Virus record (IMG/VR): IMGVR_UViG_2693429733_000017
Strand: one strand, 5' to 3'
DNA: 5,271 nucleotides
Origin: a virus
Taxonomy: Duplodnaviria > Heunggongvirae > Uroviricota > Caudoviricetes
Shown piece by piece: positions 1-5,271 of the stretch. Each line of letters begins with the position of its first letter. The stretch's first letter is position 1. The notes beneath the pieces were generated by a model that was given only the letters and a program-made list of their open reading frames with translations, ran no database searches and had not been told where the DNA came from. The translations under genes and the position numbers were made by a program.

Positions 1-38
1 TAAGTGATACTGGTTGTCTGGAGATTCAGGGGGCCAGT

Positions 39-386
39 CTACTGTGTTTCTGTTAGCCATTGTCCGGCGGCTTTTTGCTGGGTAATGCTTGCCTGCACCT
101 CTCTGGCTGATCTTTGCCAATATTTAGAAGTTAAGAGGAGGTCGTCCGCTAAATCTTCCAGACGACTACCGATCTGTGCGTCGGTATAGCCCTTTTTCAC
201 CATTCCGTTGACAGCTTTTGAAATTAAACCAGCAGAGTTATTGGCAAAGTCTTTCAAATCCTTTTTAGTTAAGAATCCTTCATTCATTAAAGTGTTAATA
301 CCAGAATCACCGCCCTTCCATATGCCTTTCCCTGTTTTCTTATCAACTACATATTCAGCCTCGTCATAGCTTTTGGTAGCGCGTTC
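39..386 (-). pseudogene. 3' fragment of an unidentified protein-coding gene, N-terminal part removed by the IS911 insertion
   Basis: Minus-strand frame is open from the IS911 left end (386) to a stop at 39-41; the listed 82-aa ORF (39..287) is its internal-Met part. No family recognised from the ~116 aa remaining. Confidence 0.4.
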
Positions 387-422
387 TGAAGTGGCACACT
401 GAATTTGGCCACCTGAACAGAG
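387..422 (+). repeat. IS911 left terminal inverted repeat (IRL)
   Basis: TGAAGTGGCACACTGAATTTGGCCACC at 387 onward pairs imperfectly with the reverse complement of the right end (TGAAGTAGTCAACAAAAACTGGCCACC). Confidence 0.7.
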
Positions 423-458
423 GTGATATGCTCACCTCAGAACAACACAGGTGCTCCA

Positions 459-1635
<1,177 letters not shown>

Positions 1636-1706
1636 CCCTTGCTGGACTTGAACCAGCGACCTGGCGATTATGAGTCGCTCGCTCTGACCAACTGAGCTAA
1701 AGGGCC
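1636..1706 (-). tRNA. tRNA with anticodon CAT, tRNA-Ile2 (lysidine, AUA-reading) type, 3' end truncated by IS911
   Basis: Reverse complement reads GGCCCTTTAGCTCAGTTGGTCAGAGCGAGCGACTCATAATCGCCAGGTCGCTGGTTCAAGTCCAGCAAGGG. It folds as a cloverleaf (D stem GCTC/GAGC, anticodon loop CTCATAA, T stem GCTGG/CCAGC, T loop TTCAAGT). The 5' acceptor strand GGCCCTT needs AAGGGCC, but only AAGGG is present before the IS terminus. Resembles E. coli ileX/ileY from memory. Confidence 0.75.
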
Positions 1707-1715
1707 GAAGGCAGA

Positions 1716-1744
1716 ATAATAACCATATGTCATCACATCTGCAA
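1716..1744 (-). promoter_or_regulatory. Candidate sigma70 promoter for the tRNA gene
   Basis: Minus strand: TTGCAG (-35, plus 1739-1744), 17-nt spacer, TATTAT (-10, plus 1716-1721), about 9 nt upstream of the tRNA 5' end. Confidence 0.35.
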
Positions 1745-1792
1745 ACTCATCTGACCACCAGCACGTTTAACGTCCTGTGCCGTTTTTCAGGT

Positions 1793-1820
1793 ATAAAAAA
1801 ACCCGCATAAAGCGGGCTCT
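1793..1820 (-). terminator. Rho-independent terminator downstream of the Q-like gene (candidate tR'-type terminator)
   Basis: Minus-strand RNA: CCCGC-UUUAU-GCGGG followed by UUUUUUU (plus-strand A-run 1795-1801, stems 1802-1806 and 1812-1816). Confidence 0.6.
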
Positions 1821-1895
1821 TTCAAATGTCCATGTCTGCTATTCGCCTCGCGGTACAGCTTTGCGAAGCGTACAAGAATTGAAGCAGTTTTTACG

Positions 1896-2450
1896 TCAAA
1901 AAGCAATAACTTTTTTCTCTATACCAAAAGCCATAACCATTGGTTTGTACAAAATAAATTCTGCCACCTTTAGCCAATGCTCAATGCGTCTTTCACAGGT
2001 TCTTAAACTCCATTTCGGGTGTGCATCATTCAGCAGTTCAGCCATTTTGCGTTTGGTCATCCCCCGCCCCTCATACCGTTGCCGAAGGACGCTAATCAAT
2101 CCTGGATGCTCTGCCAGCACCTCACTTATGACCCGATCAATACATAACGCCTCTGCATCAGTACAATGCGCCAGCCAGCTCTTTTGCTTACCGTTAATCA
2201 TATCCCGCAAAAAAGCCTCAAGTTCAGACTTGTTCAGACCTGCTTTTTTCATCCTCCGGAGCGCCTCGTTAATTGCCGTTTTTGTCAGCTTTTTAGAGGT
2301 CAACATCAGGTTAAACATATTCCCCGTCTTACCGCCACCAATATACGACCAGCGCCCCCACATACGTAGTTTTCCCTGAATCCAGACACTTTCCAGCGTG
2401 GTGAGACGAAGGTGTTCTCCGCTTTTTCCTGTATTCGTTGGGTAAATCAT
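1896..2450 (-). CDS. Putative phage late-gene antitermination protein Q (Q-like)
   Basis: ATG at 2450 with strong SD (AGGAGG, 7-nt spacer); 184 aa MIYPTNTGKSGEHLRL... Shares motifs (WG.W, LxTSKxK, GMT) with my memory of DLP12/933W-type Q. Sits immediately after the YbcO-like gene and before terminator and tRNA, the Q position in lambdoid phages. The listed longer ORF to 2570 overlaps the upstream gene and lacks an RBS. Confidence 0.55.
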   Translation of the reverse strand: MIYPTNTGKSGEHLRLTTLESVWIQGKLRMWGRWSYIGGGKTGNMFNLMLTSKKLTKTAINEALRRMKKAGLNKSELEAFLRDMINGKQKSWLAHCTDAEALCIDRVISEVLAEHPGLISVLRQRYEGRGMTKRKMAELLNDAHPKWSLRTCERRIEHWLKVAEFILYKPMVMAFGIEKKVIAF

Positions 2451-2737
2451 AAATATCCCTCCTTTCTCCAGATTTCTTGTGTGCGAAAAACACCTTCTGC
2501 ATGCATCAGGCGTAATTCTTCTTTGGTGTAATCGCTGGTTTTTACCCGCCCGTCGATTAAATCGTGGCACGAGCTACAGGCAATCGCTGCCTGCATATCG
2601 TGTGGCTTTATCGCTGTTCCGCACGTTCCCGCCAGTCGGTAATGCGCCAGCACAGACGTTTCCGGATCGTGATTGCAGTAGCCAGGAATTCTGACGGTGC
2701 ACATCTGCCCCCGCGCCGCTTTACGTAAATCCACCAT
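2447..2737 (-). CDS. YbcO-like phage protein (DUF1364-type, putative Zn-binding nuclease)
   Basis: 96 aa MVDLRKAARGQMCTVRIPGYCNHDPETSVLAHYRLAGTCGTAIKPHDMQAAIACSSCHDLIDGR...; four-Cys pattern and overall similarity to DLP12 YbcO as I recall it. SD GGAG 8 nt upstream. Start overlaps the upstream stop (TAATG), stop overlaps the Q start (ATGA). Confidence 0.7.
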   Translation of the reverse strand: MVDLRKAARGQMCTVRIPGYCNHDPETSVLAHYRLAGTCGTAIKPHDMQAAIACSSCHDLIDGRVKTSDYTKEELRLMHAEGVFRTQEIWRKEGYL

Positions 2738-3336
2738 TACGCAAACTCCAGCAGCTGCGCGGCCACATTTTCGACTTGTTCCGGAGAGGAAAATTTACGG
2801 AACAGAATCCAGTTCCACAGCACATTCAGAACAGATTTATAAACCTGCTGAAACTCGGTTTCGTCCATATTCGCAAACGCGATAGATTTCGCCCGACACC
2901 CACGGCTACCGTCCGGATAAAAATGCTCGGTGTAAAATCCGGCCTGAATGGCTACCCACTCGCGGAAAGCCTCAAACGACTTTAGCAATGCCGTATCACT
3001 GGTTCTGCGTGTCGCAACTGTATTCAGATATTGCTCTGCGGCTTCGCTCAGAGCTGGCGTATGTTCCCGGCCTACTGATTCACACAGGTAATCAACGAAA
3101 CCGGACACCAGTTTTCGTTCGCGAGGCGTGATCGCCCCACCGACCGGAGTCCAGTAATCGAAACCCAGTTGCAGGAGTTTGAAAAAACGCTTGTGGAATG
3201 CGTAGTTACACACACGCTTAAAGTCTGCGTGTATCCACTCACCTATTTTGATTTGATGCAGAAAATCGCAACTCTCCGGCGTCGCCGGGAGAAGTAATCC
3301 GGAAGAGGTTTGTTTGACCAGTTGTATATGTGCCAT
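2737..3336 (-). CDS. YbcN-like phage protein (DUF1367-type, assigned from memory)
   Basis: ATG at 3336 with SD GGAG 7 nt upstream; 199 aa MAHIQLVKQTSSGLLLPATPESCDFLHQIKIGEWIHADFKRV... The listed ORF start at 3378 is a TTG overlapping the upstream stop with no SD. Confidence 0.55.
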   Translation of the reverse strand: MAHIQLVKQTSSGLLLPATPESCDFLHQIKIGEWIHADFKRVCNYAFHKRFFKLLQLGFDYWTPVGGAITPRERKLVSGFVDYLCESVGREHTPALSEAAEQYLNTVATRRTSDTALLKSFEAFREWVAIQAGFYTEHFYPDGSRGCRAKSIAFANMDETEFQQVYKSVLNVLWNWILFRKFSSPEQVENVAAQLLEFA

Positions 3337-3374
3337 CGGCTTTCTCCGGTGGCACGGTGTTACACAGCAGGAGT

Positions 3375-3662
3375 TCAATCCTGCTCAAGATTGTAGATGA
3401 GTTTATTCTTCAGCAAAAGCAGAAAACCAGCCTTAAAACCAATCTCTTTCAAAACCCGTAATGATGTGACAAATTCGTCCTCACGCAAAATAAAACCGTC
3501 CGTCAGAAGTCCATTACAAAAATAAAATAACACAGCACCGCTCTTCCTTTGTTGAGATTGCAAACATCTAATGCGGCAATGGCTGACAATCGCTCCATTC
3601 TCAACGCGCACAGCATAGAGGCCATTTTCACTAAAAATTTCACGCAATTCTTCGATTTTCAT
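3375..3662 (-). CDS. Hypothetical 95-aa protein, first gene of the nin-like operon, function unknown
   Basis: ATG at 3662 preceded by GGAAGGA; 95 aa MKIEELREIFSENGLYAVRVENGAIVSHCRIRCLQSQQRKSGAVLFYFCNGLLTDGFILREDEF... No family recognised. Occupies the position of rem in the Qin prophage (hokD-rem-ydfU-quuQ), as I recall that map. Confidence 0.5.
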   Translation of the reverse strand: MKIEELREIFSENGLYAVRVENGAIVSHCRIRCLQSQQRKSGAVLFYFCNGLLTDGFILREDEFVTSLRVLKEIGFKAGFLLLLKNKLIYNLEQD

Positions 3663-3743
3663 CTTCAGAATCCTTCCAGATAAATAGCTCTCCCCTGTTC
3701 GGGGTCCATCCCTCTTCTCCCTGCGCGCTACTTAAGTGAGTCG

Positions 3744-3771
3744 ATTCTATCTGCGAAGGTGCGCGAATCAA
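3744..3771 (-). promoter_or_regulatory. Candidate sigma70 promoter for the 95aa-YbcN-YbcO-Q operon
   Basis: Minus strand TTGATT (plus 3766-3771), 16-nt spacer, TAGAAT (plus 3744-3749), about 80 nt upstream of the ATG at 3662. Confidence 0.3.
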
Positions 3772-3789
3772 ATTCACCGGAAATAAACA

Positions 3790-3833
3790 ACAAAAAACCC
3801 GCCGAAACGCTGAGAGATCACAGCGATGGGCGG
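3790..3833 (-). terminator. Rho-independent terminator at the 3' end of the hok mRNA
   Basis: Minus-strand RNA has stem CCCGCC...GGCGGG (plus 3798-3803 / 3828-3833) with a nested CGCTG/CAGCG stem, followed by UUUUUU (plus A-run 3792-3797). Confidence 0.6.
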
Positions 3834-3839
3834 GTTAAG

Positions 3840-3855
3840 TGCGGGTGCGTTGAGG
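3840..3855 (-). promoter_or_regulatory. hok mRNA 3' fold-back-inhibition (fbi-like) element, complementary to the mRNA 5' end
   Basis: Plus 3840-3855 TGCGGGTGCGTTGAGG equals the reverse complement of plus 4226-4240 (TGCGGGTGCTTGAGG) apart from one bulged G, so the two pair within the minus-strand transcript. Confidence 0.45.
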
Positions 3856-3911
3856 ATGCCTGACACATCAGAGGTGGGCGGGGATGGGATCAGCTCCCCG
3901 CCCGGTCACTC

Positions 3912-4067
3912 TTACTTCCTGGATTCGTAGTCTACGAAGACAGCGACCTCCGTCTGGCCGGTTCGGATTCGTACCTCACAGAGGTCTTTCCTCGTTACCA
4001 GTGCCGTCACTATGACGGTTAAACAGATGACGATCAGGGCGATTAACATCGCCTTTTGCTGCTTCAT
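3912..4067 (-). CDS. hok: Hok-family type I toxin (small membrane peptide), closest to HokD/RelF and HokC/Gef
   Basis: 51 aa MKQQKAMLIALIVICLTVIVTALVTRKDLCEVRIRTGQTEVAVFVDYESRK, near-identical over most of its length to E. coli HokD/HokC as I recall them. ATG at 4067. Confidence 0.85.
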   Translation of the reverse strand: MKQQKAMLIALIVICLTVIVTALVTRKDLCEVRIRTGQTEVAVFVDYESRK

Positions 4068-4124
4068 AGCCTGCTTCTCCTTGCCTTTCGGCATGTAAGA
4101 GGCTAACCTACATGTGCAAAGCAT
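3912..4124 (-). CDS. mok: Mok-like in-frame upstream extension of hok (modulation-of-killing reading frame)
   Basis: ATG at 4124 with GAGG 8 nt upstream; 19-aa extension MLCTCRLASYMPKGKEKQA in frame with hok, the same arrangement as mokC/hokC in E. coli K-12. Confidence 0.55.
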   Translation of the reverse strand: MLCTCRLASYMPKGKEKQAMKQQKAMLIALIVICLTVIVTALVTRKDLCEVRIRTGQTEVAVFVDYESRK

Positions 4125-4188
4125 GAAATTGGCCTCAGATTAATGTTAAGCGTCTTGCCGGACGCGTAATGTTAACTGGGGCTTTTCT
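4117..4188 (+). ncRNA. sok: Predicted Sok-like antisense RNA (boundaries approximate)
   Basis: Plus-strand candidate promoter TTGCCT (4081-4086), 17-nt spacer, TAACCT (4104-4109). The transcript would be antisense to the mok start and SD (4122-4136), then an imperfect hairpin at 4141-4174 and a U-rich tract at 4182-4190. Architecture only; no direct homology confirmed. Confidence 0.3.
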
Positions 4189-4225
4189 CTATCTGCCTTT
4201 TGGTGTTCATGCCTGAAGCAGATAG

Positions 4226-4240
4226 CCTCAAGCACCCGCA
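4226..4240 (-). promoter_or_regulatory. hok mRNA 5' tac-like element, pairs with the 3' fbi-like element
   Basis: RNA 5' region GCGGGUGCUUGAGGCU...; complementary to the 3' element at 3840-3855. Confidence 0.45.
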
Positions 4241-4243
4241 GTC

Positions 4244-4273
4244 ATTCTACTTACCTCGCCAATATGAAATCAA
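4244..4273 (-). promoter_or_regulatory. Candidate sigma70 promoter of the hok/mok mRNA
   Basis: Minus strand TTGATT (plus 4268-4273), 18-nt spacer, TAGAAT (plus 4244-4249); predicted start about 4237-4239, right at the beginning of the tac-like element. Confidence 0.4.
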
Positions 4274-4294
4274 TCAGAAAGGTGCCCCATAAAA

Positions 4295-4981
4295 TCACTC
4301 CTTCTCTTCTTTACCGTAGTGGAGTTGACCAATTTTGATAAGAGGGCGTCCCTGAGATTTGCGGTGTAGATTGGTATCGCGCAGAGAATACACACAGCCA
4401 CAATATTCCTGCTGATAGAATTTTTCGCGCTTGCTGATTTCAATCATACGGGACGAGCCGCCCTGCTTGCGCCAGTTATAATCCCAGTACACCATGCCCG
4501 GATAATGCGCGACGGCTCGCCGCCCACAGTCGTTAACCTGCTGCATATTTTTCCAGCGTGAAATGCCCAGTGAACTGCTGATCACACTGAAACCATTTTC
4601 AGCGGCGTACAGCGCCGTCCGCTCAAAACGCATGTCAAAACACATGGTGCAACGGATCCCTCGTTCGGGCTCCCATTCCATTCCTTTGGCTCGTTCAAAC
4701 CAGTTGTCTGTGTCGTAATCAGCATCAATAAACGGCACGCCGTGTTGTTCAGCAAAGCGAATATTCTCATCCTTACGAATTAAATACTCTTTCTGAGGAT
4801 GAATGTTCGGGTTGTAGAAAAAGATGGTGTAGTCGATTCCCGAGGCCTGAAGCGCCTCCATCACCTCACCGGAACATGGAGCACAGCAAGAGTGCAGTAG
4901 TAGTTTGTTTGCCCCGTTTGGGAGCTCCAATTTGGGCCGTTTGAAATCAGCAACTGTCATAAATATGTTTATTGGGGTCAT
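4295..4981 (-). CDS. queH: QueH-like protein (DUF208 family, putative epoxyqueuosine reductase or related Fe-S enzyme)
   Basis: 228 aa with [48 protein letters not shown] and a C-terminal [10 protein letters not shown] Cys motif, all typical of QueH/DUF208 as I recall the family. Start uncertain: ATG at 4981 or 4960, neither with a clear SD. Confidence 0.8.
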
Positions 4982-5128
4982 AAAAATATCAAAGAGTGTA
5001 GCATTAGAACGGGGCTATCGGAAACAGATGTGTGACTGCTCCCCGCCCTTTCGGGCGGTCTCCTGATGATTTGAGGGTGCAGAAATCCCTCCGGTTAAGG
5101 ATTAAATTTTTAACAGTGCTAAATTTAA

Positions 5129-5269
5129 TTATTCAGTTCTGGATTTTGTCGCCCTGCGTATCCGCGCTTTCGCGTTACGCTCAATCTGTATCAGCTTTTC
5201 TATATTTCTCCGCCTTTCCTGTTCCTCCTGGCGCAATAGCCTTACATCATCTGCCAGTCTGGTTTCTCT
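5129..5269 (-). CDS. Possible 3' end of a gene whose start lies beyond the window (low confidence)
   Basis: Minus-strand frame is open from the window edge to TAA at 5129-5131: ...RETRLADDVRLLRQEEQERRRNIEKLIQIERNAKARIRRATKSRTE. Only 46 codons, so it could be chance; rich in AGA/AGG/ATA codons. Confidence 0.2.
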   Translation of the reverse strand, partial: RETRLADDVRLLRQEEQERRRNIEKLIQIERNAKARIRRATKSRTE

Positions 5270-5271
5270 TT

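Follow-up and report, generated by a model that had tools for sequence, protein, structure and literature searches.

A DUF1367–YbcO gene pair of a lambdoid prophage: a probable recombination module of the nin region behind a conserved leader

Several described systems resemble the pair of genes discussed here. YbcN of the Escherichia coli K-12 prophage DLP12 (Orf151) is a divergent Orf that binds single-stranded DNA (ssDNA) and single-stranded DNA-binding protein (SSB), and in DUF968 proteins an Orf-like domain is fused to an HNH domain (Curtis et al., PMC4118853). YbcO of K-12, a zinc protein with a crystal structure (PDB 3G27), has been related to the P1 Ref nuclease and to HNHc_6, with a conserved His at the catalytic position (Kaur and Subramanian, PMC4999995). 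Its family, DUF1364, has been placed together with DUF968 in group 7 of the His-Me finger proteins, a role in recombination being proposed and RusA and Q being noted as neighbours (Jablonska et al., PMC5714182); the published link of DUF1364 to His-Me nucleases rests on FFAS and CLANS analyses (PMC5714182, PMC4999995). In Salmonella Gifsy prophages a DUF1367 gene named irsA closes a LexA-regulated dinI-antirepressor-irsA operon, and non-polar irsA deletions left the induction of these prophages unchanged (PMC3121763). Here we compare with these systems a DUF1367 gene and a YbcO gene that lie directly before a Q-like antiterminator gene in a 5,271-nucleotide stretch of tailed-phage DNA (Caudoviricetes; IMG/VR record IMGVR_UViG_2693429733_000017), the whole of which is called the window below.

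We favour, with some reserve, an interpretation in which this interval belongs to a Rac/Qin-like lambdoid prophage, as the recombination part of its nin region, and does not encode factors of the late switch. The DUF1367 protein would be a recombination mediator of the Orf/NinB fold, with affinity for ssDNA and SSB, that assists the loading of a recombinase (host RecA or the phage annealase) onto ssDNA, and YbcO would be a small, zinc-stabilised His-Me finger nuclease for the cleavage of D-loops or branched intermediates of recombination, a role filled by Rap/NinG or RusA in the corresponding slot of other lambdoid phages. Both genes would stand at the far end of the early rightward transcription unit with Q as its last gene, and a leader in front of the first cistron would probably limit or gate its translation, possibly also the transcription of the whole unit including Q. 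Each biochemical activity assigned here to the pair is one that we infer. So interpreted, the pair would be the equivalent of lambda ninB plus rap, a known kind of module with incompletely characterised members. The three genes and their overlaps are:

3336..2737, minus strand: DUF1367 (IrsA-type) gene, ATG at 3336, stop at 2739..2737, 199 aa
2739..2735, minus strand: stop/start overlap TAATG between the DUF1367 and YbcO genes, 1 nt, by direct reading
2737..2447, minus strand: YbcO (DUF1364) gene, ATG at 2737, stop at 2449..2447, 96 aa
2450..2447, minus strand: start/stop overlap ATGA between the YbcO and Q-like genes, 4 nt, by direct reading
2450..1896, minus strand: Q-like antiterminator gene (DUF1133), 184 aa, last cistron of the unit

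A preliminary description of this DNA had placed the pair at exactly these coordinates and had read the same TAATG and ATGA overlaps; the list of open reading frames (ORFs) and a direct reading of the minus strand agree with it throughout. The same three reading frames are annotated by RefSeq in a 99.8% identical stretch of NZ_CP065613.1, and the plus-strand ORFs of the interval have no support, as the genes opposite to them have very strong family matches. Each start codon is preceded by a sequence resembling a Shine-Dalgarno (SD) site, GGAG 7 nt before the ATG of the DUF1367 gene, GGAG 8 nt before that of YbcO and a strong AGGAGG 7 nt before that of Q, so that both downstream starts carry an SD site of their own.

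Membership of the first protein in DUF1367, which had been proposed from the sequence, is confirmed over the full length by Pfam PF07105 (E=2.6e-95, 318.2 bits with the cut-off at 25; residues 1-198 align with the whole 198-position profile). PHROGs assigns the protein to phrog_319, labelled "NinB/Orf homologous recombination mediator", the label being identical for lambda Orf, while a scan of NCBIfam returned no model for the DUF1367, YbcO or Q-like protein. A search of 1.84 billion representative proteins gave 1004 relatives at E<=0.001, and these fall into two size classes of ~197 aa and ~155 aa. The shorter class, which has the size of Orf, is without the part corresponding to query residues ~66-116, so that the form found in the window carries a helical insertion of ~50 residues.

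The kinship with Orf comes from predicted structures. Lambda Orf/NinB (PF05772; PDB 1PC6) was the best PDB match of two AlphaFold models of DUF1367 proteins. For the second model, Foldseek ranked the chains 1PC6_B and 1PC6_A first and second among 350,542 chains (E=3e-3, probability 0.99), the next match following at E=0.16 and a probability of 0.14; on predicted structures, then, DUF1367 probably has the fold of Orf. Gene position points the same way. In the map of a nearly identical sister prophage (see below), DUF1367 heads the nin genes, with the replication genes on one side and Q on the other, the place taken in lambda by NinB. Further, we fetched 80 related loci with the DUF1367 alignment, one genome per species, and in none of them is a NinB or YbcN gene found beside DUF1367, so that NinB and DUF1367 never occur together in the loci examined. 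From models and position we consider it likely that DUF1367 is an Orf-fold protein that fills the NinB slot. The two families nevertheless differ in that they share no significant sequence or profile similarity, in the helical insertion of the window form, and in a conserved leader that is absent from lambda-type ninB genes (0/22 loci).

The name "YbcN-like", which the preliminary description had given to the first protein, does not hold at the level of the family. K-12 YbcN has no DUF1367 match in Pfam and only a sub-threshold NinB match; it belongs, together with lambda NinB, to PHROG 72 and not to PHROG 319, and a BLASTP comparison of K-12 YbcN with the window protein gave E=0.24. What stands is a likeness at the level of the fold only. 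The ybcN genes of DLP12 and phage 82 do occupy the same slot upstream of YbcO and Q, and the same conserved leader is found in front of ylcH-ybcN.

The second protein had been assigned to YbcO/DUF1364, and here the profile search agrees (PF07102 YbcO, the former DUF1364; E=7.7e-45, 151.3 bits, cut-off 29.9). It also matches PHROG 131, "HNH endonuclease" (E=1.7e-42), is 60% identical to K-12 YbcO over its full length and matches the sequence of 3G27 with E=1.4e-30. Among 38 distinct homologues taken from the loci described below, C13, C21, C54, C57, H32, H58 and D47 are kept together with several Arg/Lys residues; the four cysteines, the histidines and D47 are invariant or nearly so, and the window protein has every one of the conserved residues. 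The catalytic roles of the conserved residues were assigned from the literature (PMC4999995, PMC5714182). Judged from sequence, YbcO is most likely a zinc protein of the His-Me finger (HNH) type and a putative nuclease. The DLP12 protein has the same Cys4 and His residues and its gene the same place before the Q region; the surroundings differ, as in DLP12 (order YbcN, NinE, YbcO, RusA, YlcG, QuuD) ninE separates YbcO from the Orf-like gene and rusA and ylcG follow before a Q of the phage 82 type, whereas the window YbcO overlaps both the DUF1367 gene and a DUF1133-type Q.

The Q-like gene itself gives a very strong match to PF06576 (DUF1133, E=2e-107), a match to PF06530 Phage_antitermQ at 29.4 bits (cut-off 26), and a match to PHROG 753, "anti-termination protein Q-like". 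Across the 80 loci, the gene after DUF1367 is YbcO in 39, NinG/Rap in 23 and RusA in 6 (with RusA in 5 more after YbcO), and the Q found downstream is of the DUF1133, 82 or lambda type, which are three unrelated families. The arrangements include:

YbcO, then DUF1133-type Q: 13 loci, two of them with an interrupted DUF1367
NinG/Rap, then lambda-type Q: ~12 loci
YbcO, then 82-type Q: 8 loci
YbcO, RusA, then lambda-type Q: several loci (4, one with NinI between)
RusA, then Q: several loci (4)

A branch-cutting nuclease of some kind thus follows DUF1367 in most loci, while the family of Q varies freely. The pairing of an Orf-type mediator with a His-Me nuclease recurs, and this recurrence favours a joint role in recombination over one linked to any particular Q. 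Rap is, like YbcO, a predicted His-Me finger protein (PMC5714182). In our comparisons neither Rap nor RusA showed significant similarity to YbcO, and the co-occurrence of YbcO and RusA shows that their roles are not identical. As a separate observation, the loci L013 (E. coli ECMA0423) and L014 (Shigella flexneri SFBU1023) contain, at 3959..5866, a second DUF1367 copy that is split by ~1.36 kb, probably an insertion sequence (IS) element.

Literature and gene position suggest a further parallel. In DUF968 proteins, which occur as YdfU in the K-12 prophage Qin and in Gram-positive phages, the HNH part of the published Orf-like plus HNH fusion clusters with DUF1364, and the pair in the window looks like the two activities of DUF968 on separate, overlapping genes. 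In Qin the same leader lies between rem and ydfU. A direct derivation as a split Orf-HNH fusion was also examined against K-12 YdfU, and none of the comparisons (hhalign with DUF1367, BLASTP with YbcO, hhalign with YbcO) was significant.

YbcO might instead be an HNH endonuclease of defence, homing or packaging, with a function unrelated to DUF1367. Such a function could be read into the PHROG 131 label and into a weak resemblance, near the CxxCH motif, to PADLOC models of HNH effectors (E ~0.002), although PADLOC gave no membership of YbcO in a defence system, and no defence family, at a convincing score. We regard it as highly improbable, as YbcO of the sister prophage is a nin-region gene at a great distance from the terminase gene, as YbcO and DUF1367 directly overlap in 22 of the 39 loci where YbcO comes next, and as YbcO alternates with Rap and RusA in the same slot; the published classifications also tie it to the recombination nucleases Ref and DUF968 (PMC4999995, PMC5714182).

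The overlaps had been taken, in the preliminary description, as a sign that the pair and Q are likely made from one message in a fixed ratio and as a ground for asking what part the pair plays in the switch to late gene expression. The junctions are indeed conserved: that of YbcO with DUF1133-type Q is -4 in 13/13 loci, and that of DUF1367 with YbcO is -1 or -4 in the 22/39 loci just mentioned. Similar junctions are, however, frequent in such genomes. Of 27 pairs of same-strand neighbours in the sister prophage, 6 have a 1-nt or 4-nt overlap, and the lambda nin region has five 4-nt overlaps (NinB/NinC, NinC/NinD, NinE/NinF, NinG/NinH and NinI/Q). As they are this common there, the NinI/Q overlap being again an ATGA, the overlaps are conserved but generic, the usual compact packing of nin genes.

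With stop/start overlaps, a single strand and no convincing terminator in between, the three genes have the properties of an operon, and their interior is not enriched in terminator-like sites relative to shuffled sequence; one message for DUF1367, YbcO and Q is plausible, as had been proposed. By sequence the overlaps allow translational coupling, which is possible without being proven by them. A fixed ratio imposed by obligatory coupling does not follow, because folding showed no RNA structure beyond that of shuffles at the two junctions (z = +1.06 and +0.06) and because Q has its own AGGAGG.

That the two proteins act with Q at the late switch, the overlaps fixing their ratio to it, could draw on the ATGA overlap kept in all 13 loci with a DUF1133-type Q, on the common strand without convincing internal terminator, and on the leader, which could meter the three cistrons together. 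We nevertheless consider it very unlikely. The Q genes that accompany DUF1367 and YbcO belong to three unrelated families and can be separated from them by other genes; in half of the loci the place of YbcO is taken by NinG or RusA; an ATGA overlap also joins NinI to Q in lambda; and Q has a strong SD site behind an unstructured junction RNA. Lambda nin5 deletions, which remove nin genes, are viable. The irsA deletions, which did not alter Gifsy induction (PMC3121763), also speak against a special tie of the pair to Q.

What the pair and Q may share is the leader upstream of DUF1367. The features of this region are:

3662..3375, minus strand: rem-like gene, 95 aa, upstream of the unit
3395..3390, minus strand: -10-like hexamer TACAAT inside the 3' end of the rem-like ORF, candidate promoter of the unit
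3384..3367, minus strand: hairpin A, stem GCAGG(A)/(U)CCUGC, loop with UGAAC
3355..3330, minus strand: hairpin B, 5' arm GUGCCA, 3' arm UGGCAC, SD site GGAG (3347..3344) in the loop

The 3' arm of hairpin B runs from the UG of the DUF1367 start codon AUG (3336..3334) through codon 2 to the first base of codon 3; the loop of hairpin A holds, in the window, the UGA stop codon of the rem-like gene (3377..3375). The RNA around the DUF1367 start folds with -26.8 kcal/mol as compared to -16.7 +/- 2.7 for shuffled sequences (z=-3.74, reached by 0/200), and the start-codon hairpin is predicted in nearly all 80 loci even though the proteins fall to 48% identity.

The leaders of 73 distinct DUF1367 genes were aligned with MAFFT, which is blind to structure, and both hairpins were recovered from this alignment by RNAalifold. 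Hairpin A has five base pairs and a nine-base loop (N-Y-U-G-A-A-C-W-N) with UGAAC as its invariant core, hairpin B has six base pairs. Four of the five stem pairs of hairpin A change on both sides (e.g. AU 27, GC 25, UA 2, CG 2), taking three or four different Watson-Crick types, and 97% of its alignment cells are paired. Hairpin B has compensatory variants as well (CG 60/UA 9/UG 3; GC 72/AU 1; CG 66/UA 1/UG 6), with 99.5% of cells paired. Over both hairpins, 98.5% of cells hold standard pairs against 84.7% in 500 column shuffles, none of which reached the observed value, and 25-39% with slid partners; 123 cells are changed on both sides, against 30 in column shuffles. The G-U pairs point to the gene strand as the one that is folded. 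The -10-like hexamer is TATAAT in 27 and CATAAT in 17 of the 73 leaders, has an invariant A at position 2 and T at position 6 in at least 90%, and is mostly (48/73) found 13 nt before the loop motif TGAAC.

No Rfam family matched the leader. From the DUF1367 leaders, excluding YbcN-type contigs, we built a covariance model (R1), which matches the window at 3408..3319 with 41.5 bits. R1 also finds the leader before ylcH-ybcN in K-12 DLP12 and in 18/18 YbcN-type viral contigs scanned, as well as in K-12 Qin between rem and ydfU, directly ahead of an unannotated ORF of 92 aa; it finds none in lambda or in 22 lambda-type ninB loci. Among the individual loci the leader lies at 6295-6385 of L002, at 4568-4657 of L084 and upstream of the DUF1367 start in L004-L083. 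The 92-aa ORF of Qin (L084 4307..4585; MG1655 ~1,644,306-1,644,584, minus strand) is absent from the K-12 annotation table; its start codon is the AUG of the leader, and it ends immediately ahead of the annotated GTG start of ydfU, after a GGAGG.

Two ways in which hairpin A might act were considered. A partner in trans was sought through its loop and not found, the complementary 9-mer being confined, in both the window and the sister prophage, to the site itself. Termination-reinitiation, with the UGA of the loop serving as stop of the upstream gene, was rejected as a general rule because only the elongated rem-like ORF of the window stops at this UGA; the rem-like ORF of L007 ends ~60 nt before the DUF1367 start and the upstream ORF of L019 at a TAG in the stem. 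On the sequence data, the simplest reading of the leader is that of a dedicated, probably regulated start of the unit with a translationally restrained first cistron; we infer the promoter function of the -10-like box and the regulatory effect of the hairpins. A wider role can be put forward tentatively, and we hold it to be possible rather than probable: the leader would be an undescribed cis-regulatory element that controls the whole recombination-plus-Q unit in Rac/Qin/DLP12/82-like prophages and so has a part in the timing of the late switch, possibly under SOS in some phages, in which case the link to Q would lie in the RNA leader and not in the two proteins.

An SOS connection is suggested for a subgroup of the loci. 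In seven of them (L030, L031, L032, L037, L042, L045 and L052) a LexA-box-like sequence, CTGT-N8-[ATC]CAG, overlaps the -10-like box ~55-70 nt upstream of the DUF1367 start, and in L032 it is a perfect CTGT-N8-ACAG; such sequences suggest SOS control of the unit in this subgroup. In the window there is no LexA box near the genes, the two one-mismatch sites found elsewhere being at chance level.

These sequences bear on the proposal that the pair, or irsA alone, has an SOS-expressed function in lysogenic conversion or host fitness and not in phage development. The gene was first noted through Tn10 insertions that impaired growth of Salmonella in host cells (unpublished, cited in PMC3121763), it stands in Gifsy in the LexA-regulated operon with dinI (PMC3121763), and L019 has the order dinI, rem-like gene, DUF1367; to this may be added the seven LexA-box-like sequences and the fact that the unit has a -10-like box of its own. 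Still, we think this rather improbable, as no LexA box is found near the window genes, as the original phenotype is unpublished and could be polar, and as SOS expression fits a role in recombination or repair equally well. The Gifsy and window genes share a small rem-like or antirepressor-like gene upstream, and in GenBank entry MN652886.1 the homologous stretch is annotated rem-irsA-ybcO-q, irsA being the DUF1367 gene; the likeness to Gifsy is known from annotation and literature, and the window differs in having neither a LexA box nor a dinI gene.

Several points weigh against the recombination module that we favour. As to the first protein, the two DUF1367 models, both of one protein family, are only partly independent of each other. 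Pfam NinB (PF05772) gave no match to the DUF1367 protein, 1PC6 was missed by phmmer and by a family-profile hmmsearch of the PDB sequences, and hhalign of DUF1367 against an 18-sequence NinB alignment covered 35 columns at 4% probability, the link to lambda NinB alone being failed or weak. In the short alignment from hhalign, the DUF1367 motif RNxxFHRKxFALL does come to lie opposite RSLDQNRKLWACL of Orf, and Q45A, K48A and W50A are among the Orf mutants listed by Curtis et al. (PMC4118853). As to the second, hhalign of YbcO against YdfU (E=0.14) and NinG (E=0.24) was consistent with the motif and not significant, a YbcO profile search of PDB sequences found only 3G27 and not P1 Ref, and the literature found contained no report of nuclease or DNA-binding activity for either family. 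YbcO and RusA occur in several of the same loci, so YbcO is not simply a substitute for a resolvase. As to the leader, a conserved -35 for the -10-like box was looked for across the leaders and not found.

A last such point comes from Eru1 Stx phages, where DUF1367 adjoins helicase and primase and has been proposed as a replication gene (PMC8044961). DUF1367 would then be a replication accessory, active for example in replisome loading or restart, as for Eru1C of the Stx phage TL-2011c: there a DUF1367 gene of 149 aa directly follows DEAD-box helicase and Toprim genes at the position of lambda O/P, for which it was named eru1C (PMC8044961). That assignment rests on position only, and position speaks differently in our 80 loci, where DUF1367 is found beside nucleases and Q and behind a rem-like gene, not beside replication genes. 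With Orf as best structural match, we judge a replication role unlikely, though the two roles overlap, as an SSB-binding mediator could serve replication restart.

The recombination module of the window itself is probably part of a decaying, defective prophage. At 1636..5271 the window has 99.8% identity to the sister prophage referred to above, which belongs to E. coli FDAARGOS_944 and has ybhA/modC beside its integration site. The genes of the sister run from the repressor/Cro region through ydaT, ydaV, DUF977, QueH, hokD, a hypothetical (rem-like) gene and DUF1367 to DUF1364, DUF1133, four tRNA genes, holin, lysozyme, terminase and the head and tail genes; this order is that of a lambdoid phage, and the pair falls into its nin region, immediately ahead of Q. 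The window has an IS911-like element of the IS3 family at 387..1635 (ends TGAAGTGGCAC... and ...GTTGACTACTTCA), which lies directly against the 3' end of a tRNA gene with the anticodon CAT (1633..1706, minus strand), and the lysis, head and tail genes of the sister are not present. Positions 1..386, to the left of the element, have no match to the sister prophage, which suggests an IS-mediated deletion or rearrangement at this flank; an ORF there (39..287, minus strand) weakly resembles part of a tape measure protein (PHROG 16051, E=6e-6). The late genes on which Q would act may be lost from this prophage.

The DUF1367 gene of the window also carries two private substitutions, R43C (codon 43, 3208..3210) and R113S (codon 113, 2998..3000). 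Position 43 is Arg in 73/75 diverse members of the family, in 78/78 loci and in the sister prophage, and it lines up by hhalign with the invariant R41 of the NinB family. As R43 is the most conserved DUF1367 residue, the window protein does not retain the full conserved set, although the other family residues (H48, P64, G133, G143, S151, F162 and Y166) are present. The C43/S113 allele is identical to partial Shigella sonnei entries, so that the prophage probably comes from Shigella, presumably S. sonnei. R43C may be inactivating and may have impaired the recombination function of this copy, and it is because of this substitution, the IS911-like insertion and the missing late region that we regard the prophage as decaying.

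Upstream of the leader, the rem-like protein is 68% identical to Rem of K-12 Qin and 64% to "rem" of MN652886.1 (PHROG 340); the homology ends at residue 80, and a tail of ~15 codons runs into the leader and stops in the loop of hairpin A. Small rem-like ORFs precede DUF1367 in most loci examined, and rem carries the label of a prophage antirepressor in one GenBank record. At 3771..3744 there is a promoter-like site ahead of rem. Farther upstream the window has a complete hok/sok type I toxin-antitoxin locus at 3912..4237 (minus strand), with a Hok ORF (PF01848, E=1e-22) and the sok antisense RNA (Rfam RF01794, 117 bits), followed, by eye, by a terminator-like hairpin near 3790..3830. The early region also contains a gene for QueH, epoxyqueuosine reductase (4295..4981, minus strand; PF02677, E=1.9e-65), and this QueH-carrying phage also has tRNA genes after Q. 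Downstream of Q, a hairpin CCCGC-TTTAT-GCGGG followed by T7 is seen by eye at 1816..1795, and a promoter-like TTTGCA-18-TATTAT (1745..1716) precedes the tRNA gene, so that the region 1716..1880 (minus strand) may be the late promoter and terminator region on which Q acts. An isrK-like Rfam match at 1796..1869 is weak (19.9 bits, E=0.25) and far below the gathering score.

The gene pair itself is ordinary, being annotated in many E. coli and Shigella genomes where it is packed against Q. What the comparison offers is, first, a concrete function for DUF1367/IrsA, which is probably an Orf-fold mediator paired with a His-Me nuclease of the Ref/DUF968 type, and this suggests that the Orf-HNH fusion of Gram-positive phages exists as two coupled genes in enterobacterial prophages. 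It also corrects an error of naming, YbcN not being a DUF1367 protein, that could spread into annotation. We think that the feature of the module most deserving of attention is the leader, which covaries strongly and is common to at least three different first genes, including two E. coli K-12 loci. If it regulates an operon that ends in Q, it would bear on the timing of late expression in such lambdoid prophages.

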